From contig OZ245791.1 in assembly GCA_965228125.1 (NCBI GenBank), positions 2,378,240 through 2,442,239 on the forward strand: 64,000 bases of DNA, read 5' to 3'. This document shows, piece by piece, positions 5,212 through 24,205 of this stretch; position 1 is the stretch's first letter; each line of letters opens with the position of its first letter. The stretch comes from Victivallales bacterium. GTDB taxonomy: Bacteria; Verrucomicrobiota; Lentisphaeria; Victivallales; GWF2-38-69. The notes below the pieces were generated by a model. It was given only the letters and a program-made list of their open reading frames with translations. It made no database searches and was not told the DNA's origin. A program made the position numbers and the translations under genes.

Positions 5212-5243
5212 TTCTTTATATATTTAAATCCTCTTAATATTTT

Positions 5244-8388: not shown

Positions 8389-8389
8389 T

Positions 8390-8845: not shown

Positions 8846-8851
8846 TTTTTA

Positions 8852-9195: not shown

Positions 9196-9205
9196 ATTAT
9201 TTTCT

Positions 9206-9276
9206 TTATAACAATTATGATTTCTTATATTTTCGCAGCGGAGCAAGAAAATATTAAGAGCATCTACTGGTTATGA
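9206..9276 (-). repeat. attC site (cassette 15)
   Basis: TTATAAC ... GCAGCGGAGCAAGAAAATATTAAGAGCATCT ... GTTATGA. Same subfamily as 8317 and 8852. Confidence 0.7.
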
Positions 9277-9280
9277 GTTT

Positions 9281-9646
9281 TTATTTAGTATGTTCCACGT
9301 ATTCAACAATTATACCGTCTGGGTGTTGGACTCGCATTTTTATTCCTTTTCGTGGTACGTCAACCGGGTTTTCTAAAATTGTAATTTTTTCGCTTAGGAA
9401 ATGATAATAGTATTCTTTTACACTATCTACTAAAAAAGTTATTTTTGTCTTTTTAAATATTTCTAAATCCTTTTCTGTGCCTGCTAATAATAAAATTGAT
9501 CCAACCATTGCCAGTTTAAGATTGATTTCAACGTAATCGAATTTCATGCTGCATTTTTCATTAAATATATTCTCGTAGAACTTGATTGTTTCATCTAACT
9601 CTGACTGGCTTATGAATATTCTTGTAAGAGATTTTATGATTTTCAT
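9281..9646 (-). CDS. VOC (glyoxalase/bleomycin-resistance fold) family protein (cassette 15)
   Basis: About 120 aa with the beta-alpha-beta-beta-beta pattern and a typical N-terminal 'I.V.DLDE.I.FYE..F' region. The assignment rests on recollection of the family only. Confidence 0.5.
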   Translation of the reverse strand: MKIIKSLTRIFISQSELDETIKFYENIFNEKCSMKFDYVEINLKLAMVGSILLLAGTEKDLEIFKKTKITFLVDSVKEYYYHFLSEKITILENPVDVPRKGIKMRVQHPDGIIVEYVEHTK

Positions 9647-9661
9647 TTATTTTATTTTTTC

Positions 9662-9718
9662 TTCTAAGATCGAATTCAGCTGCGATTAACTTTTCTGGAA
9701 ATACTTATTTTCTTAATT
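9662..9718 (-). repeat. Degenerate attC site (cassette 14)
   Basis: TTCTAAG-ATCGAATTCAGCTGCGATTAAC...CTGGAAAT...CTTAATT. It matches the AATTCAGCGG...CGCTGAAAT consensus, but both outer boxes are mutated. Confidence 0.5.
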
Positions 9719-9817
9719 TTACCAATACCATTGCATAAGAAACTCAGGCGTTTTTGCCCATGTTATCAAGTTTTGATAATCTTTGGATTTAAATTCTTTT
9801 ACTATTAAGTTCATCAT
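9719..9817 (-). pseudogene. 32-codon ORF resembling the N-terminus of a GNAT acetyltransferase (truncated cassette 14)
   Basis: Manual translation gives MMNLIVKEFKSKDYQNLITWAKTPEFLMQWYW*. It resembles GNAT N-termini (..W..d.e...qW..) but stops just before the degenerate attC. It is below the ORF-track length cutoff. Confidence 0.35.
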
Positions 9818-9829
9818 AATTTCTTTACC

Positions 9830-9885
9830 TAATAATATTAAAATTCAGCGGTATTGCTTTAGGTTTAGTGAAGTGATTGTTAGGG
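9830..9885 (-). repeat. attC site (cassette 13)
   Basis: TAATAAT-ATTAAAATTCAGCGG...GTGAAGTGATTGTTAGGG. The right box GTTAGGG overlaps the stop codon of the OsmC ORF. Confidence 0.65.
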
Positions 9886-10260
9886 TTCCATTTTAAAAGT
9901 AATCCGTGATGAAAGTGTTTTGCGTACCGGGCAATTTCTTGCTACTTCCAAAATGTCATTTCTTTCACTTTCTGATAAATTGCCATCTAATTTTACATTG
10001 TAATCAAAGCAAACTTCATTAGGCTGGCTGCGATCAAGGTTTACAGTTGTTGAAATCGTTTTTAATTGCAATGATTTTTTGTCTGCGTACATTCTGATTG
10101 ACATGTTTACACAGCATGCCAGCGCGGATTCAAGTAATTCGTGAGGTCTGAATCCATCTCCGCTACCTCCTTTATTTAACGCTACGTCGCTATAGGAAAT
10201 AACAGTTCCGTTTGTGAATTTTGTTTTATATGGCTGCTGTTCATTATTGGCTTTGATCAT
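9880..10260 (-). CDS. OsmC/Ohr family peroxiredoxin-like protein (cassette 13)
   Basis: About 125 aa with the two conserved Cys contexts (ALACCVNMS and ARNCPV) typical of OsmC family proteins. Confidence 0.75.
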   Translation of the reverse strand: MIKANNEQQPYKTKFTNGTVISYSDVALNKGGSGDGFRPHELLESALACCVNMSIRMYADKKSLQLKTISTTVNLDRSQPNEVCFDYNVKLDGNLSESERNDILEVARNCPVRKTLSSRITFKMEP

Positions 10261-10337
10261 ATCTAAGCTCTTACTTATTGTTTATTTTAAATAAAATTCA
10301 ACTGTTTGCGATTAACACGTCCTCTGGAGAATTGTCA
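10261..10337 (-). repeat. Degenerate attC site (cassette 12)
   Basis: ATCTAAG...AAAATTCAACTGTTTGCGATTAAC...CTGGAGAATTGTCA. It is recognisably related to the consensus, but the boxes are mutated and the left boundary is uncertain. Confidence 0.4.
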
Positions 10338-10874
10338 TTTAAATTTATAATTTGTTTTATAGTCGTTATATTTAATTTTCGCATAGTCTGATTCCGAAAT
10401 GATTTTATCAGCTTTTGACTCTGCTGGATAGCCGACAGCAAGCATCATTTCGACCCTTAAATAATCAGGAATATCGAGTAATTGCTTAATGTATTCTTCT
10501 GATAATAATTGTTCATTGGCATATCTTTTTCTTATTTGGATCCAGCACGAACCCAGTCCTAAAGATTCGGATGTAAAATGTAGTATTGTTGCAGCAATTG
10601 AAGAGTCTTCTATCCAGACATCTGTTTTTCTTTCATCAGCAAGAACAATAATGAGGATGTTTGAGTCTTTTATAAAGTCAGCGGAATTTGTTTTTGCTTT
10701 TGATAACCTGGCTATTAGTTCTTTATTATCAACGATTATAAACTCCCAGGGTTTAATATTATTCCCTGATGGGGAATACAATGCCGACTTTATAAGAGCT
10801 TCTATGGTTTCTCTTGGTATTTTGTCTTTCTTATATTTTCTTATGCTTCTTCTTGTCTTTAGTAAATCTATCAT
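10335..10874 (-). CDS. Nitroreductase family protein (cassette 12)
   Basis: MIDLLKTRRSIRKYK N-terminus, PSGNNIKPW motif and a length of about 180 aa. Confidence 0.85.
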   Translation of the reverse strand: MIDLLKTRRSIRKYKKDKIPRETIEALIKSALYSPSGNNIKPWEFIIVDNKELIARLSKAKTNSADFIKDSNILIIVLADERKTDVWIEDSSIAATILHFTSESLGLGSCWIQIRKRYANEQLLSEEYIKQLLDIPDYLRVEMMLAVGYPAESKADKIISESDYAKIKYNDYKTNYKFK

Positions 10875-10887
10875 TTCTACCTCTTCA

Positions 10888-10935
10888 ATAGTTACTATAC
10901 AATACCGCGACTAGTGTATCGTGTATAGTAACTAT
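10888..10935 (-). promoter_or_regulatory. Perfect 14-bp inverted repeat (ATAGTTACTATACA / TGTATAGTAACTAT) with a 20-nt spacer, upstream of the nitroreductase start
   Basis: The arms at 10888-10901 and 10922-10935 were read directly. The element lies between attC 10953 and the ORF start at 10874. Confidence 0.4.
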
Positions 10936-10952
10936 TCAAAGATAGTTTTTAT

Positions 10953-11011
10953 TGATAACATAGAGTTCAGCTACCGAGCTTAGCGAGGTTCGCTGGACTG
11001 ACAAGTTATCG
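10953..11011 (-). repeat. attC site (cassette 11)
   Basis: TGATAAC-ATAGAGTTCAGCTACCGAGCTTAGCGAGGTTCGCTGGACTGACAA-GTTATCG. Confidence 0.8.
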
Positions 11012-11012
11012 T

Positions 11013-11843
11013 TTACCATAATTCTATTTTTTTGCCCTTTAGTATGAAATGTAGTGTAAAACCAACTGCAACCATTGTAATACATCCCATTGCAGTTGCT
11101 TCTGCTCCGGTAAACTGTGATACTCTTTGTCCGTTTAATGTAACATGGAAGAAATCCATGCCATAAACAATGCCTAAAAAATAATTCCAACCAACATGTA
11201 TCCCTGCAGGAATCCAAACGGATTTAGTTTTGAAGTAAGCATAACTTGCTGCCCACCCCATGAATGTAGCATTCAATGAAGAGAAAATTGTATATTTCGG
11301 ATTAAAAATAAAATGAAGTAAGCCGAATATTAGCCCTACTAAAATAATTGCTATTATTGGTGAAAAAACTTTCCCAAGTTTTTTTAATATCCATGTTCTC
11401 AGCACAATCTCTTCCATTGTACCCTGAAAAAGACTTGCAGGAAAAAGCAATGCTATTAATGCTATAAACTTAAATGTACTTTGAGTTACTGTAGAATAAT
11501 CTGGGTTGTGTATTAACAAAAAAGTAATCCAGGTTATCAAAGCTGCAATTATAGCTAAAATAAGGCCTATGCCAAATAGATTAACAGAGTTTCTATTGAA
11601 TGATATGCCTACATCTGCTAATGATTCTTTATCTGCGACTTTGGCAAAAATATAGACAATCATTATCATTTCAATAAAAATTATAAATTGAATTCCTATG
11701 ATTGCAATTAGCTGTAGATACTGGTTTGATATTTCTCTTATGTAAGTATGAAATCCTAACAATGAATAGGAGCCTAGCATTACAAATGTTGAAATAGTTA
11801 AGAATATTAAAATTAAAACTACTGATATGATTTTCTTTTTCAT
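11013..11843 (-). CDS. CPBP family intramembrane glutamic endopeptidase (CAAX protease/Abi-like) (cassette 11)
   Basis: Multi-TM protein with EEIVLRTW (EExxxR) and FGLLH motifs. Confidence 0.8.
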   Translation of the reverse strand: MKKKIISVVLILIFLTISTFVMLGSYSLLGFHTYIREISNQYLQLIAIIGIQFIIFIEMIMIVYIFAKVADKESLADVGISFNRNSVNLFGIGLILAIIAALITWITFLLIHNPDYSTVTQSTFKFIALIALLFPASLFQGTMEEIVLRTWILKKLGKVFSPIIAIILVGLIFGLLHFIFNPKYTIFSSLNATFMGWAASYAYFKTKSVWIPAGIHVGWNYFLGIVYGMDFFHVTLNGQRVSQFTGAEATAMGCITMVAVGFTLHFILKGKKIELW

Positions 11844-11863
11844 CTCTCTTTCTCTTTTTTTGT

Positions 11864-11923
11864 CGATGACAATTTGATCACCTGCCGAGCGGAAGCGAGG
11901 TTAGATGAAGCGACTTGTTACAA
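11864..11923 (-). repeat. attC site (cassette 10)
   Basis: CGATGAC...CCGAGCGGAAGCGAGGTTAGATGAAGCGACTT-GTTACAA. The right box is the exact reverse complement of TTGTAAC at 12379-12385. Confidence 0.65.
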
Positions 11924-11967
11924 TTATATTTTTTTTTATCACACGGAGGCGCCAAGCCACAAAGAAA

Positions 11968-12387
11968 TTATATGATATTACCATTGATGACTCTTGAAAT
12001 ACCATCTTTCATAAGTGCCTCTCCAAAATTCAACAAATAACCCAACTTACAATTTTTTAATCTAAGATATGTCAACAATTGTTTTTTGTGTACTTTGGAA
12101 ACAGATTCTACAGATTTTAATTCAATAATGACTTTGTCCTCGACAATAATATCTGCTCTAAACCCTTCATCAAACTTAATTCCCTTAAAACATATGGGAA
12201 TAGATTTCTGTCTTTCTACTTTTAGATTATGTGCTTGAAGTTCATTGTATAGAATTACCTCATATACTGTTTTAAGTAATCCCTGCCCAAGCTCTTTATG
12301 AATATTAACGGCACAATCTACTATAATTTTACCTATTTCATTTTCTTTGTGTCTCTGAGGCTTTGTGTGATTTTTTATTTGTAACAT
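11968..12387 (-). CDS. GxxExxY protein (PD-(D/E)XK nuclease-fold family) (cassette 10)
   Basis: ELGQGLLKTVYEVILYNEL (GxxExxY) followed by the DIIVEDKVIIELK core. The start ATG abuts the GTT of the R' box. Confidence 0.8.
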   Translation of the reverse strand: MLQIKNHTKPQRHKENEIGKIIVDCAVNIHKELGQGLLKTVYEVILYNELQAHNLKVERQKSIPICFKGIKFDEGFRADIIVEDKVIIELKSVESVSKVHKKQLLTYLRLKNCKLGYLLNFGEALMKDGISRVINGNII

Positions 12388-12440
12388 TAGAATTCAGCGG
12401 CGCGCGATTAGCGCATTAGGTGGAATGATTTAGTTAGGAT
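12379..12440 (-). repeat. attC site (cassette 9)
   Basis: TTGTAAC-ATTAGAATTCAGCGGCGCGCGATTAGCGCATTAGGTGGAATGATTTA-GTTAGGA. Confidence 0.8.
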
Positions 12441-12861
12441 TTGAATTTGTTTTAATGGTTATGGGAGTGTCCTCTGTCCCGGCATAGAAAACTATGATTT
12501 CTGCAACTCCATTTCCTTCATTTTTTCCATAGTGCCCTTTATTAACAAGTTCGATGATTGAATCTCCAGCTTTTAGATGTAATAGCTCTCCATTTTCTTT
12601 TACAACAGTTAGTTCCCCTTTCAATAGCACGCCTGCATTAATTACTGGATGTTTATGTAGCGGCAACTGTGTCTTTGGAGGAATTAAGATTTTTAAGATA
12701 GTTATTTTCGGTTTACCTTTTGGGTAATTTGGTAATGGCTCACCATCCCAACTTGAACCAGATTGGGCTAATACATCAACCTTAATAGTGGCAACTTCAT
12801 CAGCTGCAATATAGTTTGATAGTATTAAAGACAGGAATATTCCCAAAAATATTTTTTTCAC
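12430..12861 (-). CDS. Cupin domain protein with signal peptide (cassette 9)
   Basis: N-terminal signal-like MKKIFLGIFLSLILSNYIAA. Cupin motifs LPLHKHPVINAGVLLKGELTV and GHYGKNEG. GTG start. Confidence 0.7.
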   Translation of the reverse strand: MKKIFLGIFLSLILSNYIAADEVATIKVDVLAQSGSSWDGEPLPNYPKGKPKITILKILIPPKTQLPLHKHPVINAGVLLKGELTVVKENGELLHLKAGDSIIELVNKGHYGKNEGNGVAEIIVFYAGTEDTPITIKTNSNPN

Positions 12862-12875
12862 TCTTCTCCTTTTCT

Positions 12876-12934
12876 TTATAACATTGAGTTCAGTGGCGCG
12901 CGATTAGCGCGTTCGCTGCAACGGCTGGTTACCA
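12876..12934 (-). repeat. attC site (cassette 8)
   Basis: TTATAAC-ATTGAGTTCAGTGGCGCGCGATTAGCGCGTTCGCTGCAACGGCTG-GTTACCA. It overlaps the last ~10 codons of the toxin ORF. Confidence 0.8.
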
Positions 12935-13248
12935 GTTTCCTTTTTTATTCTATTTTTGAATTTGGGATAAAGTAATTGCCGTCCATGGACAACTGCAAGA
13001 ATATATACAATAGAATCAGCTATCTCATAAATAATTCTGTAACTGTAAACGAAATGTTCTCTTACTTTTTCGTTGTCTTCTTCGGGAACCACTCTCCCGG
13101 AATGTGGAAAGATTGATAAATTCCTGGTTATTTCTAGAATCTTAGTAACTACACTGGATGCATAAAGGTGAGAATCTTTTTCAATATACTCCGCTATCCC
13201 TTCAATGTCTTTTAAAGCATCATCAGACCAGATTACTTTATAATCCAT
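12904..13248 (-). CDS. RelE/ParE family type II toxin (cassette 8)
   Basis: The MDYKVIWSDDALKDIEGIAEYI...YRIIYEI...IVYILAVVHGRQ pattern is typical of ParE/RelE toxins. It overlaps the upstream small ORF by 16 nt. Confidence 0.8.
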   Translation of the reverse strand: MDYKVIWSDDALKDIEGIAEYIEKDSHLYASSVVTKILEITRNLSIFPHSGRVVPEEDNEKVREHFVYSYRIIYEIADSIVYILAVVHGRQLLYPKFKNRIKKETGNQPLQRTR

Positions 13249-13424
13249 TTTTCTAACCTTTTTTCTACTTCATCCTGAGTATGAATTTTGCCTTGATTTA
13301 TCTGTTCTCTGGATTTAGATAATTTTTCAGCAATGTAAAGATGATATTGTATATCCTCAAAAGTAGAATTGTCAGGTAGATTTTTGATTATTTTTTCTGC
13401 TTCATTTTTGGCTGTCAACAACAT
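13233..13424 (-). CDS. Putative antitoxin of the ParE/RelE module (cassette 8)
   Basis: 63-aa ORF immediately upstream of the toxin and overlapping it, preceded by GGAGG. The C-terminal ...HTQDEVEKRLEKW is reminiscent of small antitoxins. The assignment is by context. Confidence 0.6.
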   Translation of the reverse strand: MLLTAKNEAEKIIKNLPDNSTFEDIQYHLYIAEKLSKSREQINQGKIHTQDEVEKRLEKWIIK

Positions 13425-13431
13425 GGTATAC

Positions 13432-13478
13432 CTCCATAACTTGTTATATGGATATTATATCTTCATTTTGTCATTATA
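13432..13478 (-). promoter_or_regulatory. Candidate cassette-internal promoter and operator for the TA pair
   Basis: On the minus strand there are two TATAAT hexamers (reverse complement of 13473-13478 and 13454-13459) and a near-palindrome CCATATAACAAGTTATGG (13433-13450) next to the GGAGG RBS. Confidence 0.4.
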
Positions 13479-13502
13479 GCAATTTGTATCTGATTTCTAT
13501 TT

Positions 13503-13560
13503 GGGTAACATTGAATTCAGCGGCGCACGATTAGTTCATTTGTCTGAATGTGCATTAAAA
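13503..13560 (-). repeat. attC site (cassette 7)
   Basis: GGGTAAC-ATTGAATTCAGCGGCGCACGATTAGTTCATTTGTCTGAATGTGC-ATTAAAA. The right box has G>A relative to the GTTAAAA predicted from 14026-14032. Confidence 0.7.
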
Positions 13561-13561
13561 G

Positions 13562-14026
13562 CTACCACTTATAGTGCTTGCCTCTTTTGTTTATCCAATC
13601 ATCTATGCCATTCTTTTTAATGGCCTCAAGATTTTTTAATAAATCCGGATGAAATGCTGAATGCTTGAGGATTAGTTCACACCTTTTAAAATCTTTGCAA
13701 TTCCAACAACCTTCAATTTCTTTGTCTAAAATGCACTTTCTGATTTTGCAAGCTTTTGTACAGCCCAGTTCTGAATATGGTCCTTCTACACAAGAACCTG
13801 TACATTCTAATTTTTTTAGCTCTTTTAGGACTTCAATAAAATCAGGAAACTTTTTAAACACGGGATTTTTATTAGCTTTAAAATCTGCGTATTTATCTAG
13901 CCTTGTTTCTACTGCAACCTGCTCAAGTTTTTTTATTGTATCGAATAATTCTTTGTTTCCAGGAATACAGTCTTTACAATAAAGCCCACAATATGCAGTG
14001 TATTTTCTTATTTCATTCTTTTTCAT
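13562..14026 (-). CDS. Cys-rich DUF3795-like protein (cassette 7)
   Basis: YCGLYCKDC N-terminal motif plus further CxxC-type clusters (CTGSC, CKIRKC, CWNC). Confidence 0.5.
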   Translation of the reverse strand: MKKNEIRKYTAYCGLYCKDCIPGNKELFDTIKKLEQVAVETRLDKYADFKANKNPVFKKFPDFIEVLKELKKLECTGSCVEGPYSELGCTKACKIRKCILDKEIEGCWNCKDFKRCELILKHSAFHPDLLKNLEAIKKNGIDDWINKRGKHYKW

Positions 14027-14086
14027 TTTAACGTTAAAATTCAGCAGCGCGCGATTACGGTCGTTCGCTGAAATGATTGGTTATAG
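14026..14086 (-). repeat. attC site (cassette 6)
   Basis: TTTTAAC-GTTAAAATTCAGCAGCGCGCGATTACGGTCGTTCGCTGAAATGATTG-GTTATAG. Confidence 0.8.
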
Positions 14087-14668
14087 TTTTCTTTTTTCTT
14101 TTATTTCCTTTCCTGCATGAAACCCAAATCCCAGGAAGTTTCCCATAGACCAGTACTCGCGGGCTTTTGCGCAATAAATAAGAGGATCGATTTTTGAAAT
14201 ATCTATTCCGGCTCTTTTTGATTCATCTGCTTTGTCTGTATCAACATGTGTTTCTATTATCTCCCCTAATATTAGAACCCAATCACCAAGGATGATATCA
14301 TGACTAACTTTACATTCGATATTATATGGACACTCTTTGATGATCGGAGGTTTGATTTTCGAACTCTTAATAGGTGTAAAACCAGTATCCTCGAACTTAT
14401 TATTTTTTAGTCCGGTTGTTATCCCGCAATAATCTACTTCTTTAAAGAAAGATGCCTTCGGGATATTTACTGAAAACTCTTTGCAATCTTTTACTAGTTC
14501 CAGAGAATACCGGGTCTTTTTAAGAGAAATGCCGATAGTTGGAGGAGTTGAGCTTGCAATTCCAATCCATGCTAAAGTGATGATATTAGCCTTATTACCT
14601 GTGCCGCTTACGATTAATGCAGAAGGTACCGGAAATATTGCGTCTGATGGACCAAGCTGTTTTTTCAT
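14081..14668 (-). CDS. Flavin reductase family protein (FMN-binding split barrel) (cassette 6, distal gene)
   Basis: The PVPSALIVSGTG.KANIITLAWIG pattern is typical of flavin reductase-like domain proteins. Confidence 0.7.
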   Translation of the reverse strand: MKKQLGPSDAIFPVPSALIVSGTGNKANIITLAWIGIASSTPPTIGISLKKTRYSLELVKDCKEFSVNIPKASFFKEVDYCGITTGLKNNKFEDTGFTPIKSSKIKPPIIKECPYNIECKVSHDIILGDWVLILGEIIETHVDTDKADESKRAGIDISKIDPLIYCAKAREYWSMGNFLGFGFHAGKEIKEKRKL

Positions 14669-15409
14669 TTATTTTACTTCTTTAATTTTTTTTAAGTATT
14701 CTGGTTCTTCAATATCATGAAAATATTTTTTATAAATATATTCATCGAGTTCAATCGCATTATCTGAAAGGTAATAGCTATCAAGATTAAAAGTTCCTTT
14801 AGATTCAGAATACGCATTTCCACCATTGATATAATAATCAAATTTACTTACCTTCTCAAAGGCCATATAAACATTGCAAACAGAATCCGTCAAGGATTCA
14901 TGCAATTTAGCTCTCCAACGTTCTTTGCAGTCAGGATTTAAATAATATTTTCTTGGAATAGCACCCACAAAATTTTTTATATTATTGGAAAAGAGCATAT
15001 CTTTTCTTTTGCTTGCACAAGGTAACGATATTCTACAATCAAATTTTCTAAATATGTCTGGAATAAAAATTGCTTGATTGTTTATGCTTATTTTAAGGGG
15101 GCTTTCATCATCCACTTCTGTTATCTTTATCTCATTATCAATAAAGTAATCTAATAAACCAATTATTCTTAAGTTCTCTTTTAAATATCCATCTGCACTT
15201 TCAACTATATTAATGAAGCAGTTTTTTTCTAAAAAGTATTCAACTACTTTTTTTAGTAATATTGCATCTGTTCTTGGATGATTTTCTTTTGGTGGCCGCG
15301 CTAAATTAATTTTGATTAGAATCTTTTTGCTGTTTATGTGATTAGATTCTAGTTTTGTATCTACAAAGAGTTTTGAAATTTCCTGATTTTGACTTATAGA
15401 TTGAATCAT
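14669..15409 (-). CDS. DUF362-like protein (cassette 6, proximal gene)
   Basis: KILIKINLARP...HPRTD resembles the DUF362 'vliKpNl...tTdP' N-terminal motif. Its stop abuts the start of the flavin reductase, with no attC between them. Confidence 0.4.
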   Translation of the reverse strand: MIQSISQNQEISKLFVDTKLESNHINSKKILIKINLARPPKENHPRTDAILLKKVVEYFLEKNCFINIVESADGYLKENLRIIGLLDYFIDNEIKITEVDDESPLKISINNQAIFIPDIFRKFDCRISLPCASKRKDMLFSNNIKNFVGAIPRKYYLNPDCKERWRAKLHESLTDSVCNVYMAFEKVSKFDYYINGGNAYSESKGTFNLDSYYLSDNAIELDEYIYKKYFHDIEEPEYLKKIKEVK

Positions 15410-15418
15410 TTTTTATTA

Positions 15419-15478
15419 TTGTAACGTTGAAATTCAGCGGCCGACCAACGGGAGGTTCGCTGAAATGATTGGTTATAA
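15419..15478 (-). repeat. attC site (cassette 5)
   Basis: TTGTAAC-GTTGAAATTCAGCGGCCGACCAACGGGAGGTTCGCTGAAATGATTG-GTTATAA. It is nearly identical to the attC at 16028. Confidence 0.85.
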
Positions 15479-15485
15479 TCTTTCT

Positions 15486-16028
15486 TTAATAATTTTCATA
15501 TTTAACTGTCAAAGTTAAAGCTTTTCTTTCCGTTTTGTGCCTTTCTGGGCTAAGGAAGCCATTTATTGGATAACCTAAAAAAATTAAAGCTGTAGGTTCA
15601 ATGTAATCGGGTATATTAAATTCCTTACGTATAATGTTCGGGTCAAATAACCCAACCATAACACTTCCTATGTTTTTTTCTCTGGCTGCAAGCATGATAT
15701 GGTCACATACAATTCCAATATCAAGGTCTCCAGAACACTTATTATCAAAAGGGCTTATTAAAGGCTCTGATTTATCTTGCGAAACAATAAGAACGCACTG
15801 CGAATTAAAAGTTTGATATGCTTCTTGAATTTTTAAAATGTTTTTTGGGTTTTGAACAACAATAATTCTTTGTGGTTGCTTATTACATGCACTGGGGGCA
15901 ACACGGCTAGCGGCTAAGATATAGCCAAGATCAGATTTTTTTATTGGTTGATCATTAAAGCCTCGCGTAGTACATCGTTTTTTTGCTAATTCAAGAAAAT
16001 CCATATATTCCCTTTTTCCATGCCACAT
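15486..16028 (-). CDS. Nitroreductase family protein (cassette 5)
   Basis: FLELAKKRCTTRGF, APSACNKQPQR and a length of about 175 aa. The true start may be the internal ATG at 16004 (MDFLEL...). Confidence 0.8.
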   Translation of the reverse strand: MWHGKREYMDFLELAKKRCTTRGFNDQPIKKSDLGYILAASRVAPSACNKQPQRIIVVQNPKNILKIQEAYQTFNSQCVLIVSQDKSEPLISPFDNKCSGDLDIGIVCDHIMLAAREKNIGSVMVGLFDPNIIRKEFNIPDYIEPTALIFLGYPINGFLSPERHKTERKALTLTVKYENY

Positions 16029-16087
16029 TATAACATTAAAGATCAGCGGCTGACCAACGGGAGGTTCGCTGAAATGACTGGTTAAAT
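16028..16087 (-). repeat. attC site (cassette 4)
   Basis: TTATAAC-ATTAAAGATCAGCGGCTGACCAACGGGAGGTTCGCTGAAATGACTG-GTTAAAT. Confidence 0.85.
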
Positions 16088-16563
16088 TACCATTTTTTTC
16101 TTTCTTCTTTTAACTCTTGCTTCATATCGTGAATCATGTTTTCCCCAATAAACATGTTTCTACTGTTAATAAGCCCATCACAGATTTTATGACCGTTGAA
16201 TTCTAAGATTGCAGTATCTATAACAATCCAATCTGGAAGTAATTCTTCCAATGGTGTTGTTAGACATTTAACACAATGCCAGTTGTTGTTTTTATCTTTT
16301 AATGCATATCCTTGTTTATATTTTTTCCCATAAATAAAAGTCCCATATATTCCATTTTGGACTGCAGATATAAATAACTTGTCATATCTGTCATCGAAAG
16401 AATAAATAAGATTAATCTCTTTTTCATATAATTTATCTCGTGCATGTGTAAAGTCTTTTAAGCTTATGAGTTCTTTTCCTGTTACTTCTGATAACAAAAG
16501 CTTGTATTGTGCAAGAAAACTTGCGGCTAAATCCGGTTCTATTAGTGTCATTTTTCTTTCCAT
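16087..16563 (-). CDS. Hypothetical protein (cassette 4)
   Basis: 158-aa ORF that exactly fills the interval between two attC sites. I recognise no motif. Confidence 0.55.
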   Translation of the reverse strand: MERKMTLIEPDLAASFLAQYKLLLSEVTGKELISLKDFTHARDKLYEKEINLIYSFDDRYDKLFISAVQNGIYGTFIYGKKYKQGYALKDKNNNWHCVKCLTTPLEELLPDWIVIDTAILEFNGHKICDGLINSRNMFIGENMIHDMKQELKEERKKW

Positions 16564-16620
16564 TTAACATTGAATTCAGCGGTCGAGCTTTGCGAGGTTC
16601 GCTGGAATGTTTGGTTATGG
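16562..16620 (-). repeat. attC site (cassette 3)
   Basis: ATTTAAC-ATTGAATTCAGCGGTCGAGCTTTGCGAGGTTCGCTGGAATGTTTG-GTTATGG. Confidence 0.85.
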
Positions 16621-16633
16621 TTTTCTTATTTTT

Positions 16634-17188
16634 TTATCTTGCCTCATAAATATCATCTGGATATGGCAAATTAAAACTTCGAATGAATTCATTATATAGT
16701 TTCACATATATTTTAAATTCTTCAAAGTCTCCAATTTCCCTATCTTTGAATGCATGTATTGCATTTCTTCTTTTTTGTATGAAATCAATAAAGTCAATCC
16801 ATTTTTTAGTAAGAAGGTTATTCCTTACAAAAAATTGTTTTAATTTTTCTAAAGCTAAACTATCAGGTTCAATCAATTTTCCTTTTTTACCTTTGATCGC
16901 ATTAATATCTTTTTTGTAATCATTGAAATATACTGATAAAAACAATTTTAGATTTCCTTCTACTAAACACCCTAAATTTGTCCAAGCCAAAATTAACTTT
17001 CCATCATCCAAATTATCAGATTCAAACCAAAGTTTTAGACACTTAGAAAGATCAACTTGTCTATCAAGTCTTGATTTACTCATCAAATCAGCAGCTTCGA
17101 CTGGAGCCCAGCCATGCGATTTACTCCAAAATTTTGCTAATTGAGAATTGTAGCTGATTATTTTGTCTATTGTTTTGTTTATATCCAT
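16634..17188 (-). CDS. Hypothetical protein with an HEPN-like Rx4H motif (cassette 3)
   Basis: 184-aa, predicted mostly helical ORF with ...FIQKRRNAIHAFKD... (R-x4-H, RNxxH-like) near the C-terminus, as in HEPN-domain proteins. The start ATG lies inside the R' box (GTTATGG). Confidence 0.5.
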   Translation of the reverse strand: MDINKTIDKIISYNSQLAKFWSKSHGWAPVEAADLMSKSRLDRQVDLSKCLKLWFESDNLDDGKLILAWTNLGCLVEGNLKLFLSVYFNDYKKDINAIKGKKGKLIEPDSLALEKLKQFFVRNNLLTKKWIDFIDFIQKRRNAIHAFKDREIGDFEEFKIYVKLYNEFIRSFNLPYPDDIYEAR

Positions 17189-17244
17189 AACGTTTGAACT
17201 CTCCGGCTGGCGATTAGCCGGTTCGGATCAGTGAGTTGTTATAA
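17185..17244 (-). repeat. attC site (cassette 2)
   Basis: CCATAAC-GTTTGAACTCTCCGGCTGGCGATTAGCCGGTTCGGATCAGTGAGTT-GTTATAA. It has an internal CCGGCTGG/CCGG stem. Confidence 0.8.
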
Positions 17245-17697
17245 GCTTTTATTTTTATTATTGTACTTACATAAAAGTAAAGTTTTTGATTCATAATAAC
17301 TATTGCACCATTGCCATTTTTCATAAATCTCTTTAGGTGCTTCTGATTTATCGTTAATAATAATAAAACCAAATTGTTTATAAAAATTTTCTAAGCATTC
17401 AAATGGAAGACAGTATATTTGGCAGTAAATATTGGAATTTTCAAGTAAAGCACAAACCATCCTCCGCGCAATGCCTAATTTTCTAAATTCTTTGAATACA
17501 TATATGCCACCTAATTCAGATGTAGTTTCATCAATTTTTTGAAGCCTACCGATACCTGCTTTATTGCCATTGAATTCTGCTATTACTATATATTCGTTGC
17601 TGTAATTTGAGTGTTTGAATTTAATTTCATCATATTTTTTATTTATCCACTCTATTTCTTCTTGAAGACATTTTCTTATATTTATTTTTCCGTTCAT
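17239..17697 (-). CDS. GNAT family N-acetyltransferase (cassette 2)
   Basis: FRKLGIARRMV acetyl-CoA-binding motif and a length of about 150 aa. Confidence 0.75.
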   Translation of the reverse strand: MNGKINIRKCLQEEIEWINKKYDEIKFKHSNYSNEYIVIAEFNGNKAGIGRLQKIDETTSELGGIYVFKEFRKLGIARRMVCALLENSNIYCQIYCLPFECLENFYKQFGFIIINDKSEAPKEIYEKWQWCNSYYESKTLLLCKYNNKNKSL

Positions 17698-17705
17698 TTT
17701 TCTCC

Positions 17706-17779
17706 CTATAACAAAAAGCTCACCTATCAGTGCAAAAGCGACAGCGTTTCACTGATTAGGTGGAGCGACCTCGTTAGAC
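17706..17779 (-). repeat. attC site (cassette 1)
   Basis: CTATAAC...CACCTATCAGTG-CAAAAGCGACAGCGTT-TCACTGATTAGGTGG...GTTAGAC. The long stem has a bulged base, and the site overlaps the last ~10 codons of the cassette 1 ORF. Confidence 0.8.
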
Positions 17780-18267
17780 TTCTTTTTATTTATTTTTTCT
17801 TTCTCAGCCGGTAATATTACTGCAAGTTCGTCACTTATATCTAAACCAAATGCAGAAGTAATTATGGCAACTCTTAATCCTATCGCAGCTCTCAATACTC
17901 CCAAAGAACTGAAGAAAGTCCATTCTTCTATACTACCACATAATGGTCTATGGTTTATTCTATGAGTTTGTACCGTATCGAGAAATTTTCTACACTCTGC
18001 TCTAATAATATTTAAATGTTCAGTCAAATTTTCAATATCATCCCATTCCATTAGCTTATCTGTAAGAAATTGTCTTATATACATTATTGAATGAATACAA
18101 TGTTCTGGGACTTCTATAGAATAGTCGTTGTAGAGAACTCTTTTATCTTCTAAAAAAGTTATTATTTGCTTTGCTTTTGTTCGGGAAGTTTTATCTGGAT
18201 TCCAAGATATACCAAAGAAAGGACAACTTATTCCATTAATTCTTTTGAAGATAGATTTAAATTTCAT
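17749..18267 (-). CDS. Hypothetical protein (cassette 1, integrase-proximal)
   Basis: 172-aa ORF preceded by AAAGGAG. I identify no catalytic motif. The C-terminal tail (...NEVAPPNQ) is encoded by the attC. Confidence 0.6.
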   Translation of the reverse strand: MKFKSIFKRINGISCPFFGISWNPDKTSRTKAKQIITFLEDKRVLYNDYSIEVPEHCIHSIMYIRQFLTDKLMEWDDIENLTEHLNIIRAECRKFLDTVQTHRINHRPLCGSIEEWTFFSSLGVLRAAIGLRVAIITSAFGLDISDELAVILPAEKEKINKKKSNEVAPPNQ

Positions 18268-18282
18268 ATTATCTCCTTTCAG

Positions 18283-18289
18283 TCTAACA
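18283..18289 (-). other. Cassette 1 boundary box GTTAGAC (R' core; former attI x attC junction)
   Basis: The minus strand reads GTTAGAC, a perfect GTTRRRY and the exact reverse complement of the R'' box of cassette 1's own attC (plus-strand GTTAGAC at 17773-17779). Confidence 0.7.
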
Positions 18290-18309
18290 TTAATTCTATT
18301 GATTTGTTA

Positions 18310-18317
18310 ATTATACA
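18310..18317 (-). promoter_or_regulatory. Candidate Pc-like promoter: extended -10 TGTATAAT reading into the cassette array
   Basis: The reverse complement of 18310-18317 is TGTATAAT (TGnTATAAT). It lies about 20 nt upstream of the cassette 1 boundary. There is no convincing -35. Confidence 0.4.
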
Positions 18318-18354
18318 CCCTTCAGGTTAACGGAAAAATATTTTTCCAGGAATT

Positions 18355-18785
18355 TTACTCAATCTGTATCAGGCATTTAACGATTTGCTATTTGTTTATA
18401 GAAATGTCCTTCACAGAGATCCGGGAGATTTATCGCAGACGCTAAGAGCCAAGAAACATGAAAACATTCCTGTGATAATGACTAAGAATGAGTGTTTAAA
18501 AGTAATTGAGAATCTCGATGATATATATAAATTGATGTCAAAGGCCATATACGGTGGGGGATTGTGCCTTACGGAATGTATCAGGTTAAGGATTCAGGAT
18601 GTGGATTTTGAACGGCAGGTCCTGACTATACGTGGAGGCAAAGGAAATAAAGACAGGGAAACTTTATTTCCGTCTATTTCAATTGAAGAGTTAAAATTTC
18701 ATATTGAAACAATAAAGGAATTTTATGAACTTGACAGGAGTAATGAAACAAGCTTGGAGTAAGAAGCCCGTTGGATCTACTTTAG
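18355..18785 (+). pseudogene. intI: Integron integrase (IntI) remnant, truncated and internally deleted
   Basis: The frame containing 18385-18762 reads ...NLYQAFNDLLFVYRNVL...PVIMTKNECLKV...AIYGGGLCLTECIRLRIQDVDFERQVLTIRGGKGNKDRETLFP.... This aligns with IntI residues of about 85-205 as I remember IntI1. An in-frame stop at 18328 removes the N-terminus. After the stop at 18760, another frame (18756-18785) reads GVRSPLDLL*, the conserved IntI C-terminal end. Confidence 0.8.
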
Positions 18786-18863
18786 ATTTTTGGGATATTT
18801 AGCATCCCTTTTTCGGCAATGTATATATCAGCGTTTTTAGACTGGTAAAAAACAATGTCAAAG

Positions 18864-20012
18864 TTAAGCTTTTGCCAGAACTTCCTTAATGGCATCAACG
18901 ACATCATCGACGTCCTGTTCTGTCATGTCAGGGAATAGGGGAATGGTGCAGATTCTTTCAGAGTTATAATCTGTATTCGGGAGAACTCCCGGAGCGATGT
19001 TCATTGTTTCACGGTAGTATTTTTGGACATGTGCTGCAAGGAAGTGAAGCCCTGTGCCGATATTGAGTTTTTTCAGTTCTTCCATAAATTGATTACGGTT
19101 AATCTTGTCTGAAACTACCCTGACGATAAAAATATTCCAGGCATGAGTAAAGTTGTAGTTAGGATCGCTTAAGGGAAGAACTCCTGTTACATTTTTAAGT
19201 TTCTCTCTGTAAAGCATTGCCAGTTTTGTACGTTTTTCATTCATTTCCGCAAGCCTTGCAAGCTGTCTTACTCCAAGCACGGCAGCTATATCAGTGAGGT
19301 TGTACTTGTATCCGGGTTCTACTACCTGGGCCTGTGGTGAACGGCCCTGCTGTTTCCTGTCGAAAGCGTCAACCCCCAGTCCGTGGAATTTAAGTTTTCT
19401 TAGTTTATCTATCAATTCCGGATCATTTGTAGTAACCATTCCGCCTTCACCAGTTGTGATATTCTTAATAGGATGGAATGAGTAAATCGCGGTATTGTCA
19501 CAGCCGACATGTTTGCCTTTATAGAAAGTTCCTATTGCGTGAGCGGCATCCTCTATGACTGTAATACCATGTTTTTTTGCCAAGGCATTGATTGCGTCCA
19601 GATCTACAGGAGCGCCGGCATAATGAACAGGGATAATGAGTTTTGTTTTGGGCGTAATACATTTCTTGATAGTTTCTGCTGTGACCAGCAATGTATCACG
19701 GTCAACATCGGCAAAAACAGGAGTGGCTCCTGCAAGGACAATCATATTTACGGTGGAAACCCAAGTCAATGACGGAGTGATAACTTCATCGCCGGGGCCG
19801 ATATTTAAAGCTTTGAGTACGATGTGCATTCCGGCGGTAGCGGAGGTTAGAGCAACTGCGTACTTGGCTGTAGTATATTCGCATAGATTTTTTTCGAAAT
19901 CGGCATTCCATACACCGGTTGTAATCCAGCTTGATAGCAGGACTTTGCTTACGGCTTCAGTATCTTCTTTAGTAATAGATGGTTTGCAGAAAGGTAGAAA
20001 TTCTTGTCTCAT
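18864..20012 (-). CDS. DegT/DnrJ/EryC1/StrS family sugar aminotransferase (ArnB-like)
   Basis: MRQEFLPFCKPSITKEDTEAV start and SFHPIKNITTGEGG (PLP lysine). The 29-codon N-terminal extension in the ORF track was rejected. Confidence 0.85.
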   Translation of the reverse strand: MRQEFLPFCKPSITKEDTEAVSKVLLSSWITTGVWNADFEKNLCEYTTAKYAVALTSATAGMHIVLKALNIGPGDEVITPSLTWVSTVNMIVLAGATPVFADVDRDTLLVTAETIKKCITPKTKLIIPVHYAGAPVDLDAINALAKKHGITVIEDAAHAIGTFYKGKHVGCDNTAIYSFHPIKNITTGEGGMVTTNDPELIDKLRKLKFHGLGVDAFDRKQQGRSPQAQVVEPGYKYNLTDIAAVLGVRQLARLAEMNEKRTKLAMLYREKLKNVTGVLPLSDPNYNFTHAWNIFIVRVVSDKINRNQFMEELKKLNIGTGLHFLAAHVQKYYRETMNIAPGVLPNTDYNSERICTIPLFPDMTEQDVDDVVDAIKEVLAKA

Positions 20013-20202
20013 AAAAACCCCCTTAATATCTGAAATAAAGTAAATTGAAAAACATTTAGAGCTAAACAGAATATTCCAAAATGAAGATAAATCAAACATA
20101 GCATGGAGAAAACTTTGTTTTCATAAGCAAAATTTATAACCTTGTCATACAAACATAATGATATAAAATTAGTGATTATCTTTTCTGTTAAACTCAAGAA
20201 TT

Positions 20203-21450
20203 TTGGAAGTTATGAACACAGTTAATCGCCTTACATGGTTGTCTTACCTGATTTTTATGTTCCTGGGATGTGAATTTATTTCTCAGGGAGTGCTTATATT
20301 ATTTGTGTCAAAAACTTATGGAATAAGTCTTGCCCACGTGGGGTATCTGCTTTTTATTCCGTCTCTTATACAGGCGGTGGTGACATATTTTAACGGATAT
20401 TTTTTAGAGAAGACTGACCTCAAACATCAGATACACATCGGGCTGGGCGCAATTTCCTTGAGCTTGATCTGTCTCATAAGCAGTTATTACCCTATTTTCC
20501 TAATAGGCCTCTTTGTACTTGGATTTGGGAATGGGATACTTATTTCAGTTCCTAACTATCTGATAGTTACTTTGCACAACGAAAATAAATTTCAAAAATT
20601 AAACATAATAAATTTCTTTTTCAGCGTAGGCGGAATTATCGGCCCGTTTTTACTTGGGCAGCTATTGGAGATAAGCTGTCCCTGGCAATTAGCTGTAGCC
20701 ATATCTTTTGTTTTTCTGGGTTTGCTCTTTTGGCTTAATAAAGCTATAGAGTATTCGAAATTTGCATCAGATGAACCAGAAGAAGAAGATGCAGAAAAGA
20801 AGATAACGTGGCATTTAAGCATTTACCTGATAGCGGCGGCTCTTTTTTTCTATGTTCTTTCTGAGTGTATTTTCTCCGCGTGGATAGTTTCGTATTTCAA
20901 AATTGTCTATAATTTTTCTATAGCCAAGGCCACTCTCGGGCTTACGATCTACTGGATGTTTATCACCTTCGGGCGATTCGGGGCAGATAAAATCGGTAAA
21001 TATATGAGGATTTACCAGTTTATACTCCTTTCGAGTTCTCTTGCTTTTTTGGCGTACCTGATGATCTTCCTAAATAAAAACACCACTTTTGACCTGATTA
21101 TGATAGCGTTGATGGGGCTTGGTTATGCAGGGCTTTACGCTTCCATCCTTTCCTATGGAATAGACCAGCTCCCTTATAACTGCCCGAAACTTATGAGTTT
21201 TATGGTTTTGGCAGGAACCATCGGAGGAGTTCTGGCATTGCCGTTTTCAAGCTTCTTTGTAAACCGTTTTAGTATTTTAACAGCACTGGCGCTTGGGCTT
21301 GGGATCCTGTTTATGGTTATAGTATGCATTTATTTTACCATCAAAGACAAGAATAATCCTGTAAAGGATGAAAAAGGTTCAAAGAACTTAAAGAACGTTG
21401 TGAGAATTTCCCGTTTCTTCATTAGAAAATTCTGGCACAAAATAATTTAA
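20203..21450 (+). CDS. MFS-type transporter
   Basis: 12 predicted TM segments in two halves with a charged central loop and a GRFGADKIGK-like MFS motif. Confidence 0.6.
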   Translation: MEVMNTVNRLTWLSYLIFMFLGCEFISQGVLILFVSKTYGISLAHVGYLLFIPSLIQAVVTYFNGYFLEKTDLKHQIHIGLGAISLSLICLISSYYPIFLIGLFVLGFGNGILISVPNYLIVTLHNENKFQKLNIINFFFSVGGIIGPFLLGQLLEISCPWQLAVAISFVFLGLLFWLNKAIEYSKFASDEPEEEDAEKKITWHLSIYLIAAALFFYVLSECIFSAWIVSYFKIVYNFSIAKATLGLTIYWMFITFGRFGADKIGKYMRIYQFILLSSSLAFLAYLMIFLNKNTTFDLIMIALMGLGYAGLYASILSYGIDQLPYNCPKLMSFMVLAGTIGGVLALPFSSFFVNRFSILTALALGLGILFMVIVCIYFTIKDKNNPVKDEKGSKNLKNVVRISRFFIRKFWHKII

Positions 21451-21607
21451 TTATAATAAAGTTACATCTAACAAAAGACTTATTTGCGGGTATGTTATTT
21501 CGTTTTTAGCAAGAAACTCTAGGGAAATGACAGAGTTCCTCATCGGTAGTCGTGTCTCATTGTGTCGTGCTAGCGTTATCAATAACGATTATTAAACAAT
21601 TCCAAGA

Positions 21608-22984
21608 ATGGTTGTATCCATGAGAGTCGCTTTAGTTGAACTTTCCAGCCGTGACCGCCTTAATATTTATGCGTTAATCAAGATGGCGAGGGGTATTCCT
21701 TTGTTGGCTGCTATTTTGAAACCGTTGGGGCACAGCGTCGATTGTTTCGTTGAAACTATTCAAAAAATCGATTGGAGAGAATTGCTTGACTATGATTTGG
21801 TCGGTTTCAGCATTATCTCCTGCACTGCCAATCCGACTTATGTTATGATCAAAGAGCTTAGAAAAGCGGGTTATAAGGGGAAGATTTTGGTTGGCGGCCC
21901 ACATGCTACAGTTCTGCCTAATGAATCATTGGAAGCTGGTGCTGATGCGGTCGTCAGGCACGAAGGCGATAAGACTTTTCCTGCTCTTCTTCAAGCGATA
22001 GAACTGAACAGTTGTTGGGAAAATGTTCTTGGTATTAGTTGGAAAACTCAGACTGATGTCTATTTGCATAACCCAGATCGGGAGTTATTGACAAGAAAGG
22101 AGCTTTCTGATTTGCCGCTGCCCGCGTTTGAAACTATTCGGGGGCACCAAAAGATACACCAGCTTCCTCTGATGTTCAGCAGAGGCTGCCCGTATGATTG
22201 TGTTTTTTGCGCGGTGAGAAGCTTTTTTGGTACGTATCGTTTTACAACGGCCGATTCGCGCATTCAGCAGCTTAGGACATTAAGAGATATATATCCTTGG
22301 TTTTGGGAAAACTGTACTATCTTTTTTGCCGATGATAATTTTTTTGGCACTCAAGAAAGCCAGCTTATAACCAAAGAGATGCTGAGACGTATGAAAGCAG
22401 AAAATCTTATACCGCCAAAGGGTTGGGTCTGCCAAATGCGGGTAGCTGATGCTGATTTGGGAAATGCTCAGTTATTGAAAAACGCCGGCTGTATTGTTGT
22501 TTGTCTAGGTATTGAGTCAATCGATGCCATCGCACTTAAATCTATACACAAAGGACAAACGCAAGAGGATATCCGTAAGGGACTGGCTAATCTGCATAGA
22601 CAAGGCATTGATACATTGGCTATGACTATTGCCGGCATTGACACTGATACTTTCTGGTCGTTTTTCAGAGGAATTCGTAAATTACGCGAATGGGGCATTA
22701 CCTATCTTCAAATCCTTGCGATGGTGCCATTGCCTGGTACAAAAATGACAAATCAGTTATTAGAGAAGAAAGTAAAATTTTCCCGTAACTATGACCACTA
22801 CAACGGAATGCATGTTCTTATAAAACCCGCACGAATGTCCATGTTTAGCGTCTGGATGTCAGTTTATTTCGTGACTATCTGGTTTTACTTTTTTACTACT
22901 CACGGCCTAAAACTTTTCACAAAACGGTCTAAATATTATTTGAAGATGATGTTTATTATGTTTCGCCAAACCTACAAAATATAA
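21608..22984 (+). CDS. B12-binding domain radical SAM protein
   Basis: N-terminal Rossmann-like B12-binding region (DLVGFSIIS...ILVGGPHAT) followed by SRGCPYDCVFC (Cx3Cx2C). The C-terminus is hydrophobic. Confidence 0.8.
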   Translation: MVVSMRVALVELSSRDRLNIYALIKMARGIPLLAAILKPLGHSVDCFVETIQKIDWRELLDYDLVGFSIISCTANPTYVMIKELRKAGYKGKILVGGPHATVLPNESLEAGADAVVRHEGDKTFPALLQAIELNSCWENVLGISWKTQTDVYLHNPDRELLTRKELSDLPLPAFETIRGHQKIHQLPLMFSRGCPYDCVFCAVRSFFGTYRFTTADSRIQQLRTLRDIYPWFWENCTIFFADDNFFGTQESQLITKEMLRRMKAENLIPPKGWVCQMRVADADLGNAQLLKNAGCIVVCLGIESIDAIALKSIHKGQTQEDIRKGLANLHRQGIDTLAMTIAGIDTDTFWSFFRGIRKLREWGITYLQILAMVPLPGTKMTNQLLEKKVKFSRNYDHYNGMHVLIKPARMSMFSVWMSVYFVTIWFYFFTTHGLKLFTKRSKYYLKMMFIMFRQTYKI

Positions 22985-22991
22985 GATACTT

Positions 22992-24035
22992 ATGACTGAC
23001 AACGGCATTGTTAAAAAACGCAGAGTGCGGTACAAGGGGACGCATCCCCGGCATTTTGAAGAAAAATACAAGGAGTTGAACCCTCAACTTTATGCCGACG
23101 AAGTGAAGAAGGTCATAGATCACGGAAAAACCCCCGCAGGAATGCATCGCCCCATTCTTGTCAAAGAGGTTCTTGATGTTCTTGATCCAAAACCCGGGAT
23201 GGTGGGACTTGATGCGACTCTTGGTTTTGGCGGGCATGCACAGGAGTTGTTGAGGTTAATTGTGCCAGGAGGGCGGCTTATTGGCATAGATGTAGATCCA
23301 TTAGAGTTGCCCAGAGCTGAAGCTCGTTTGCGAAGACTTGGCTTTTCAGAGGATGTCCTAATCGTTCGACGGATGAACTTTGCGGGTTTGCCTCAACTTT
23401 TGCCGGAAGCCGGCGGTGCATTTGATTTTGTGCTTGCAGATCTTGGCGTTTCGTCAATGCAGTTGGATAATCCGGCTCGGGGGTTTTCTTTTAAAATCAA
23501 TGCTCAGTTGGATCTTCGCCTCAACCCTGGCAAGGGCCAAAGTGCATCGACACTCCTTAAGTCAATAACTCAGGAAGGATTGACAGAGCTCCTTATCTCA
23601 AATGCCGATGAACCCCACGCATCAACAATTGCAAAAGTGATATTTGACAATAAACATCAGATTGATTCGACAAAACAATTGGCGGATATTATAGCTTTGG
23701 CTTTAAGGCGCCTTCCGGAAAAAACACGGAAAGATGAGACTAAAAAATCACTGCAGCGGACATTTCAGGCTTTGCGAATAGCGGTCAATGACGAGTTGAC
23801 CGTGCTTGATCAGTTTCTCAGTCTGCTGCCAGGAAGTCTTAGAGCAGGCGGACGCATTGCAATTCTAACATTTCATTCCGGCGAAGACCGCCGTGTGAAA
23901 AAGTCTTTTCTAGAAGGGTATCGTTCCGGCATCTACTCCAAAATTACCCGTGAAGTTATTCGGCCTTCGCCGGAGGAGCGCTATGCTAATCCAAGGGCGG
24001 CATGCGCAAAGCTCCGTTGGGCAGTAAAAAGTTAG
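22992..24035 (+). CDS. rsmH: RsmH (MraW)-like SAM-dependent rRNA cytosine-N4 methyltransferase homolog, outside a dcw context
   Basis: HRPILVKEVLDVL..G..LDATLGFGGHA, DLGVSSMQLD, RTFQALRIAVNDEL, FHSGEDRRVK and NPRA..AKLR motifs match RsmH. It carries a ~50-aa basic N-terminal extension. Confidence 0.75.
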   Translation: MTDNGIVKKRRVRYKGTHPRHFEEKYKELNPQLYADEVKKVIDHGKTPAGMHRPILVKEVLDVLDPKPGMVGLDATLGFGGHAQELLRLIVPGGRLIGIDVDPLELPRAEARLRRLGFSEDVLIVRRMNFAGLPQLLPEAGGAFDFVLADLGVSSMQLDNPARGFSFKINAQLDLRLNPGKGQSASTLLKSITQEGLTELLISNADEPHASTIAKVIFDNKHQIDSTKQLADIIALALRRLPEKTRKDETKKSLQRTFQALRIAVNDELTVLDQFLSLLPGSLRAGGRIAILTFHSGEDRRVKKSFLEGYRSGIYSKITREVIRPSPEERYANPRAACAKLRWAVKS

Positions 24036-24205
24036 TTCTTTGCAGAATTTTAGCCACAGCCTGTTAATCGCATCTAAATTTCAAGCAAGTCCATCTTTCT
24101 TTTAACAGCAAGGTCGCTTATACCGTCAGCTGCCCTATAATTCAGATAATATAGAGTCGGTATTTAAACTAGAATAACCCCAAACAAGGTTAAAGGAGTT
24201 ACAAA

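Follow-up and report, generated by a model that had tools for sequence, protein, structure and literature searches.

Analysis of the window, i.e. the whole 64-kb stretch of DNA under study, revealed a minus-strand array of about 17 gene cassettes and, beside it and transcribed divergently on the plus strand, a fragment (18367-18747) that corresponds to the middle third of an integron integrase (IntI), with the array lying upstream of the fragment. The two are bordered by kup, dusB and dsbD on one side and by an arnB-like gene, rsmH, topA, dnaX and an SRP RNA on the other, and given these housekeeping flanks we concluded that the integron is chromosomal. The bacterial small SRP RNA (Rfam RF00169, 55 bits; 35661-35759, minus strand) adjoins dnaX, itself a housekeeping context, and the Rfam scan of the window returned nothing else of relevance. 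The GC content of the array is 0.31-0.34, compared with 0.38-0.44 in the flanks. The features on which the analysis is based are as follows.

8320-18288, minus strand: cassette array, about 17 cassettes with 19 open reading frames (ORFs).
18282-18312, minus strand: boundary of the first cassette, with the core GTTAGAC at 18282-18288 preceded by AATTAACAAATCA...TTAAT.
18310-18317, minus strand: extended -10-like element TGTATAAT facing the cassettes, read directly from the sequence.
18328-18366, plus strand: 5' breakpoint zone, an in-frame TAA (18328-18330) and then 12 codons, RKNIFPGILLNL, that carry no IntI homology.
18367-18746, plus strand: surviving middle segment of the intI pseudogene, covering the end of the SAM-like N-terminal domain, the linker and the first half of the catalytic domain.
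18565-18567, plus strand: TGC codon, Cys in place of the catalytic Arg of box I.
18746-18747, plus strand: internal deletion junction, at which ...DRSNE is joined directly to NKLGV...; ~340 nt, i.e. 113 codons plus a frameshift.
18747-18785, plus strand: last 12 intI codons and native stop, NKLGVRSPLDLL-TAG, in a different frame from the segment before the junction.
18792-18808, plus strand: terminator-like hairpin just 3' of the intI stop, a match to the consensus only.

The array is made of short minus-strand ORFs parted by imperfect palindromes of 59-74 nt (..TAAC...CAGCG...CGCTGAA...GTTA..). These have the features of attC sites: R''/R' and L''/L' pair and leave unpaired bulges, and each site is located just downstream of a cassette ORF, all on one strand. 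Folding yielded the bulged attC hairpin in seven of ten stretches, with z between -1.9 and -4.5, and five of seven further boundaries folded no better than shuffled sequence (z above 0). Boundaries at 8848-8921, 9652-9712, 10262-10334, 11864-11925 and 13501-13562 keep attC-like boxes at z above 0; such non-folding boundaries may reflect erosion of attC after loss of the integrase or may belong to divergent attC types. RNAalifold predicted no structure on the raw attC alignment, owing to problems of alignment register, and the covariance model that we used (R1) was built on eight attC sites of the array with a manually supplied structure. R1 gave 13 matches in the array, all on the minus strand; outside the array, no match in the window was convincing. 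Eight of the 13 are sites on which the model had been trained and which match by construction, and two more (17706-17779, E 0.13, and 9206-9276, E 5.5) lack significance when taken singly.

Minus strand, R1 attC matches: 17706-17779, 17185-17244, 16562-16620, 16028-16087, 15419-15478, 14026-14086, 13503-13560.
Minus strand, R1 attC matches, continued: 12876-12934, 12379-12439, 11864-11923, 10953-11011, 9830-9885, 9206-9276.

The cassette products include GNAT, DUF6650, nitroreductase, DUF362, flavin reductase, DUF3795, cupin, PDDEXK and OsmC proteins, a CPBP protease and a ParE toxin with its antitoxin. The toxin-antitoxin cassette lies in the middle of the array (12904-13440, minus strand) and encodes the ParE-family toxin and a 63-aa upstream partner. 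Toxin-antitoxin cassettes are thought to stabilise the arrays of chromosomal integrons (PMC13108822) and, by analogy, the ParE cassette possibly stabilises a static array here. The three cassettes farthest from intI (8320-8388, 8848-8921 and 9206-9276) carry a second attC type, GATGCACTTAA...GCTCCGCTC (family D11), suggesting that they came from a different source. At 9647-9879 (minus strand), a 233-nt gap between ORFs contains a tiny ORF, MMNLIVKEFKSKDYQNLITWAKTPEFLMQWYW-stop, along with two attC-like ends, and resembles a truncated cassette gene.

The plus-strand reading frame beside the array opens at 18331, reads RKNIFPGILLNLYQAFNDLLFVYRNVL...YGGGLCLTECIRLRIQDVDF...RGGKGNKDRETL...ELDRSNETSLE and ends at the TAA of 18760-18762. 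The 143-residue translation matched positions 66-192 of 315 of the NCBIfam integron-integrase model TIGR02249 with 118.3 bits (E 4.2e-34), a score short of the full-length cutoff (265), as two thirds of the protein are missing. It also matched positions 81-199 of 337 of the IntI1 equivalog NF011946 and, among solved structures, was matched best by residues 71-192 of VchIntIA/IntI4 (2a3v); tblastn with intact IntIs aligned 18370-18747 at 43-48% identity. The match to IntI is far above chance. A preliminary description of this DNA had placed the homology between about residues 85 and 205 of IntI, the former in IntI1 numbering, and the remnant is indeed an IntI homologue. Searched exhaustively with HMMER, 1.8 billion cluster representatives yielded 12,118 hits, the best full-length ones being 40-50% identical, whereas a word-indexed protein search with the fragment found no match but the fragment itself.

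The segment that survives lacks the IntI-specific domain of ~35 residues near patch III, which IntegronFinder models as intI_Cterm and which formally separates IntI from Xer, and the assignment to IntI is made from a segment without that feature. The absence of this domain, PF00589 and several Xer models that also match, and the presence of some non-IntI recombinases beside attC sites in the data of Cury et al. (PMC4889954) are what one would invoke to regard the fragment as an Xer- or phage-type tyrosine recombinase that merely adjoins an attC cluster. However, the IntI model scored ~70 bits over the best Xer model (48.6 bits), and PF00589 reached 31.8 bits over positions 3-74 of 172 only (42% of the profile). 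All full-length hits that we inspected, drawn from the 150 best of the exhaustive search, carry the IntI-specific insertion ALERKYP..W.W.W.FP and the C-terminal SPLD tail, and a C-terminal GVRSPLD tail is common to the locus and to those IntIs. Furthermore, the closest relative found (ENA ERZ21869602:ctg74290l, hereafter L060) is a full-length intI beside an array of the same attC type. Given these data we consider an Xer or phage origin extremely unlikely. The IntI-specific domain lies wholly within the internal deletion, so that its absence is an outcome of decay and no evidence for another family; yet the present sequence is no functional IntI.

In the alignments, the IntI homology begins abruptly at QAFN (18367-18370), and the relatives read LAVERRVAASTQ where the fragment has the 12 non-aligning codons. 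The in-frame TAA reported at 18328-18330 is indeed in the same frame, directly upstream of 18331, and tblastn with intact IntIs detected no N-terminal IntI segment elsewhere in the 64-kb window. The nearest IntI relatives are 405-460 aa long and have two Phage_int_SAM_4 stretches, i.e. a duplicated N-terminal SAM-like domain; these long forms (proteins P0006, P0010 and P0015, and L060 5105-6350) exceed classical IntIs by ~95-120 aa, in keeping with the clade "about 120 aa longer" noted previously (PMC2426708). The preliminary description was right that the 5' part is gone, but its size of ~80 codons holds in IntI1 numbering, and in the numbering of the long clade the loss is about 160 codons.

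Box I of the fragment reads YGGGLCLTEC and pairs with YGSGLRLMEC of 2a3v, so that Cys stands opposite Arg. Arg occupies this column in 147 of the 149 closest cluster representatives, and L060 has an AGG codon there, confirming that the catalytic Arg has become Cys. The change of Arg to Cys alone would be expected to abolish activity. In addition, the Lys of the beta-hairpin (GKGNKDR) is kept, and the remainder of the catalytic set R-K-H-R-H/W-Y is deleted, i.e. the H-x-x-R box, the His/Trp and the Tyr.

These residues, together with the IntI-specific domain near patch III, fall within the internal deletion. In L060 there are 113 residues between DREEN and KLGVKSPLDI, a number close to the 115-130 missing codons of the preliminary description, whose list of missing parts is confirmed; the size of ~340 nt is an estimate, since it is taken from a relative only about 61-64% identical. 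Downstream of the junction, NKLGVRSPLDLL-stop at 18747-18785 matches the extreme C-terminus of the relatives, for example RNKLGVKSPLDI-stop in L060, as had been claimed for the tail that is read in another frame. AGAAA is present at both flanks of the deletion in L060, making a microhomology-mediated deletion at a repeat of the AGAAA type possible. The terminator-like hairpin at 18792-18808 suggests that the original 3' end of intI is intact. Either deletion, 5' or internal, would alone abolish IntI activity. All three lesions of what had been called a triple-hit pseudogene are thus present, but the Cys may be drift that followed inactivation and not an independent hit. Apart from the lesions, 21 of 24 near-invariant positions are retained and no stop interrupts the 143 codons; the remnant appears not to be heavily eroded, which fits an inactivation by deletion in the fairly recent past.

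We considered whether the lesions are artefacts, i.e. that intI is intact in the actual genome and that misassembly or long-read indel errors produced the deletions and the frameshift. Related long-read ENA contigs do show sporadic indels, among them several 1-2 nt frameshifts in the intI of L060 and one in the ENA metagenome contig ERZ21878172:ctg5754l (L001), which covers 8478-24104 of the window at 99.994% identity. The single indel between L001 and the window in 15.6 kb lies within the arnB-like aminotransferase gene (18864-20099, minus strand), which is intact in the window (411 aa) and split in L001 (10387-11623) into 290 and 132 aa by 1 nt, probably by an assembly error in L001. Over the remnant, however, the two sequences agree exactly. 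L001, which is perhaps from the same or a related sample, carries the same remnant and no intact gene, and a simple assembly error is therefore disfavoured. Moreover, the lesions consist of a gap of ~340 nt, a 5' loss of about 500 nt or more and a base substitution, and include no small indels or homopolymer slips, and the terminator-like hairpin and normal chromosomal genes directly flank the remnant. An artefact is thus very unlikely.

Between the core GTTAGAC of the first cassette (18282-18288) and the onset of IntI homology there are 78 nt, compared with ~390 nt from the first cassette to the intI start in L060. R1 matched the first cassette boundary (18282-18312) with 15.1 bits, E 0.94 window-wide and 0.003 locally; the match covers the R''/R' boxes and spacers only, and the central 35 nt of an attC are absent from it, so that the boundary may be a leftover attI-type site or an attC without its centre. 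The 78-nt junction showed no fold (z +0.57), local alignment gave noise, and comparison of the junction (78-102 nt) with the intI-attI spacer of L060, the rest of the window and all loci yielded nothing above chance save a 16-nt self-palindrome. This perfect palindrome, GGAAAAATATTTTTCC at 18332-18347, lies between the first cassette and the remnant and is expected about by chance in 64 kb of AT-rich DNA. Fold, covariance and similarity searches gave no confident identification of attI, and the 78 nt may represent either a vestige of attI or a lost cassette's tail together with a collapsed attC. The earlier proposal that the cassette boundary replaces attI is plausible, but what remains may still include part of attI. 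The extended -10-like element TGTATAAT is a possible cassette promoter (Pc), as read from its sequence; it was not called by the consensus promoter scan because its -35 is weak. Two routes to the present arrangement were rejected. IntI-mediated deletion between attI and a secondary GTT inside intI is contradicted by the 78 nt of non-intI sequence that part the core from the homology. Insertion of a cassette into intI, with the 5' half moved to the far end of the array, fails on an N-terminal IntI match that is nowhere in the window.

Together, the data leave us highly confident that the remnant is the non-functional leftover of the intI of a chromosomal integron. We propose as its ancestor a gene for a long-form IntI of about 410 aa that was transcribed away from attI and the cassettes. 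A deletion or rearrangement has taken the promoter, the start codon, ~160 N-terminal codons and most or all of the intI-attI spacer; a single-base change has converted the catalytic Arg of box I to Cys; and a clean deletion of ~340 nt has taken the attC-recognition domain, H-x-x-R, His/Trp and Tyr and shifted the frame. The remaining product is unable to cleave or bind DNA as a recombinase, and the array of about 17 cassettes is frozen with respect to its own integrase, a static gene cluster. The earlier claim that the array can no longer be rearranged by its own integrase is supported by the two deletions, each of them disabling, and by the search for other tyrosine recombinases, IntI or Xer-like, which found none in the window at E <= 10; this search covered 64 kb of the genome, and a functional intI may exist elsewhere in it. 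Changes in the array could still arise by ordinary deletion and recombination or through the folding attC sites and an integrase acting in trans, and by analogy with established integron biology the well-folding attC sites would be potential substrates for such an integrase. The proximal cassettes would perhaps be transcribed from the promoter-like TGTATAAT. The integron biology behind these inferences on trans-mobilisation and cassette expression is established (PMC4889954, PMC13108822).

The open frame of 143 codons in AT-rich DNA and the retention of most conserved residues would also suit a remnant that is still in use, either as a protein of 94-125 aa, for which ATG 18478 and TTG 18385 are candidate starts, or as a transcript with a new role such as DNA binding or interference with an incoming integrase. 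However, independent folding is unlikely for a piece that has lost its entire N-terminal DNA-binding domain along with half of its catalytic fold. The exhaustive search revealed no family of short proteins of the remnant's extent, the sole near-identical hit being a single cluster from the same locus, and no convincing promoter or ribosome-binding site was found upstream. Reuse therefore seems to us a most improbable account, and we retain the view that the remnant is non-functional.

The intI of L060 is 61-64% identical to the remnant in amino acids (64% over the best protein match, 61% over 112 codons) and 65-72% in nucleotides (72% over 221 nt), and its array gave R1 matches of 70.8 and 46.4 bits. 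L060 resembles the window in attC type and in the divergent layout of intI and array; it differs in having a full-length intI in which the Arg of box I is kept, a 390-nt spacer between intI and cassettes and different flanking chromosomal genes. Apart from L060, the best named relatives of the remnant are in metagenome-assembled genomes (MAGs) of Spirochaetota and Desulfobacterales (44-49% identity, among GTDB species representatives), and none was found above 49% in genome contigs or 54% in JGI metagenome contigs. In the L060 spacer (4707-5105) a palindromic motif, TTATATGGAT(N)TCCA, occurs three times and could be a binding site of the integrase or of a regulator. The L060 intI (5105-6350) carries at least three frameshifts, near 5140, near 5612 (+1) and near 5860 (+2), which may be due either to long-read indel errors or to a second inactivation, independent of the first. 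For dating the inactivation, dN/dS between the remnant and L060 was uninformative, the synonymous sites being saturated. Because L060, with the same attC type, appears to be inactivated by different lesions, i.e. small frameshifts, loss of the integrase might be recurrent in this sparsely sampled integron lineage, with repeated independent selection against an active integrase in the long-form IntI clade and frozen arrays as a result; we regard this as a tentative reading that is rather doubtful at present. If true, heavily eroded remnants without the intI_Cterm region, of the kind found here, would lie behind some of the CALINs (clusters of attC sites lacking an integron-integrase) in which no pseudogene is recognisable, 95% of the total.

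Records of inactive intI genes beside retained arrays go back to 2008 at the latest. Roughly a third of intI genes are inactive (PMC2426708), and an active integrase is costly to fitness and soon disappears in experiments (PMC3510236). Loss of intI was proposed by Cury et al. in 2016 as an origin of CALINs, their hypothesis (iii), although recognisable pseudogenes were found beside only 15 of 279 (PMC4889954). In that work a CALIN is defined by at least two clustered attC sites and no protein within 4 kb that matches both PF00589 and intI_Cterm, and IntegronFinder calls IntI only if both profiles match (PMC4889954). The locus has a non-functional intI and, as given above, no confidently identified attI, and in this respect differs from a complete integron. 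It has 13 R1 sites (by our own model, eight of them training sites and two with E above 0.1), no second recombinase and no intI_Cterm region, and by IntegronFinder's published rules it is probably already a CALIN, a class that it likely owes to the deletion of the region modelled by intI_Cterm. The preliminary description, which saw the locus as on its way to becoming a CALIN, thus had the direction of decay right but understated how far it has gone. The published pseudogene screen would miss the remnant, because the intI_Cterm region is lost and PF00589 is matched over only 42% of its length, and would register the locus as a CALIN that has no pseudogene.

The locus is a clear and well-resolved example of one proposed route from complete integron to CALIN, the decay of intI in situ, and it adds no new biology beyond a methodological point. 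This point, its only mildly new aspect, is a blind spot: the deletion took exactly the region by which IntI is recognised, and profile screens would report no integrase remnant. Such remnants would be picked up by screens that also cover the N-terminal half of IntI, and the share of CALINs that is explained by loss of the integrase could then rise.

Compared with known systems, the locus is like the pseudo-integrons of Nemergut et al. (2008, PMC2426708), including the Xanthomonas cases cited there, in that intI was inactivated by deletion or frameshift while the array was retained, in its chromosomal location and in the diverse cassette functions unrelated to antibiotic resistance; it differs in a decay that is unusually far along and multiple, with two large deletions and an active-site substitution, whereas a lone stop or frameshift accounts for most cases on record. 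Compared with the integrases VchIntIA/IntI4 (2a3v) and IntI1, the remnant is homologous to VchIntIA 71-192, aligns in box I and at the beta-hairpin Lys and shares the GV(R/T)SPLD tail; unlike them, it is only ~40-45% identical, belongs to the longer clade with two Phage_int_SAM_4 stretches, has Cys for Arg and has lost the rest of the active site. Like the CALINs of Cury et al. (PMC4889954), the array has more than two attC sites and no functional IntI within 4 kb, and it illustrates their origin (iii); its intI remnant lacks the intI_Cterm region entirely, and it would be counted among the 95% without a recognisable pseudogene.
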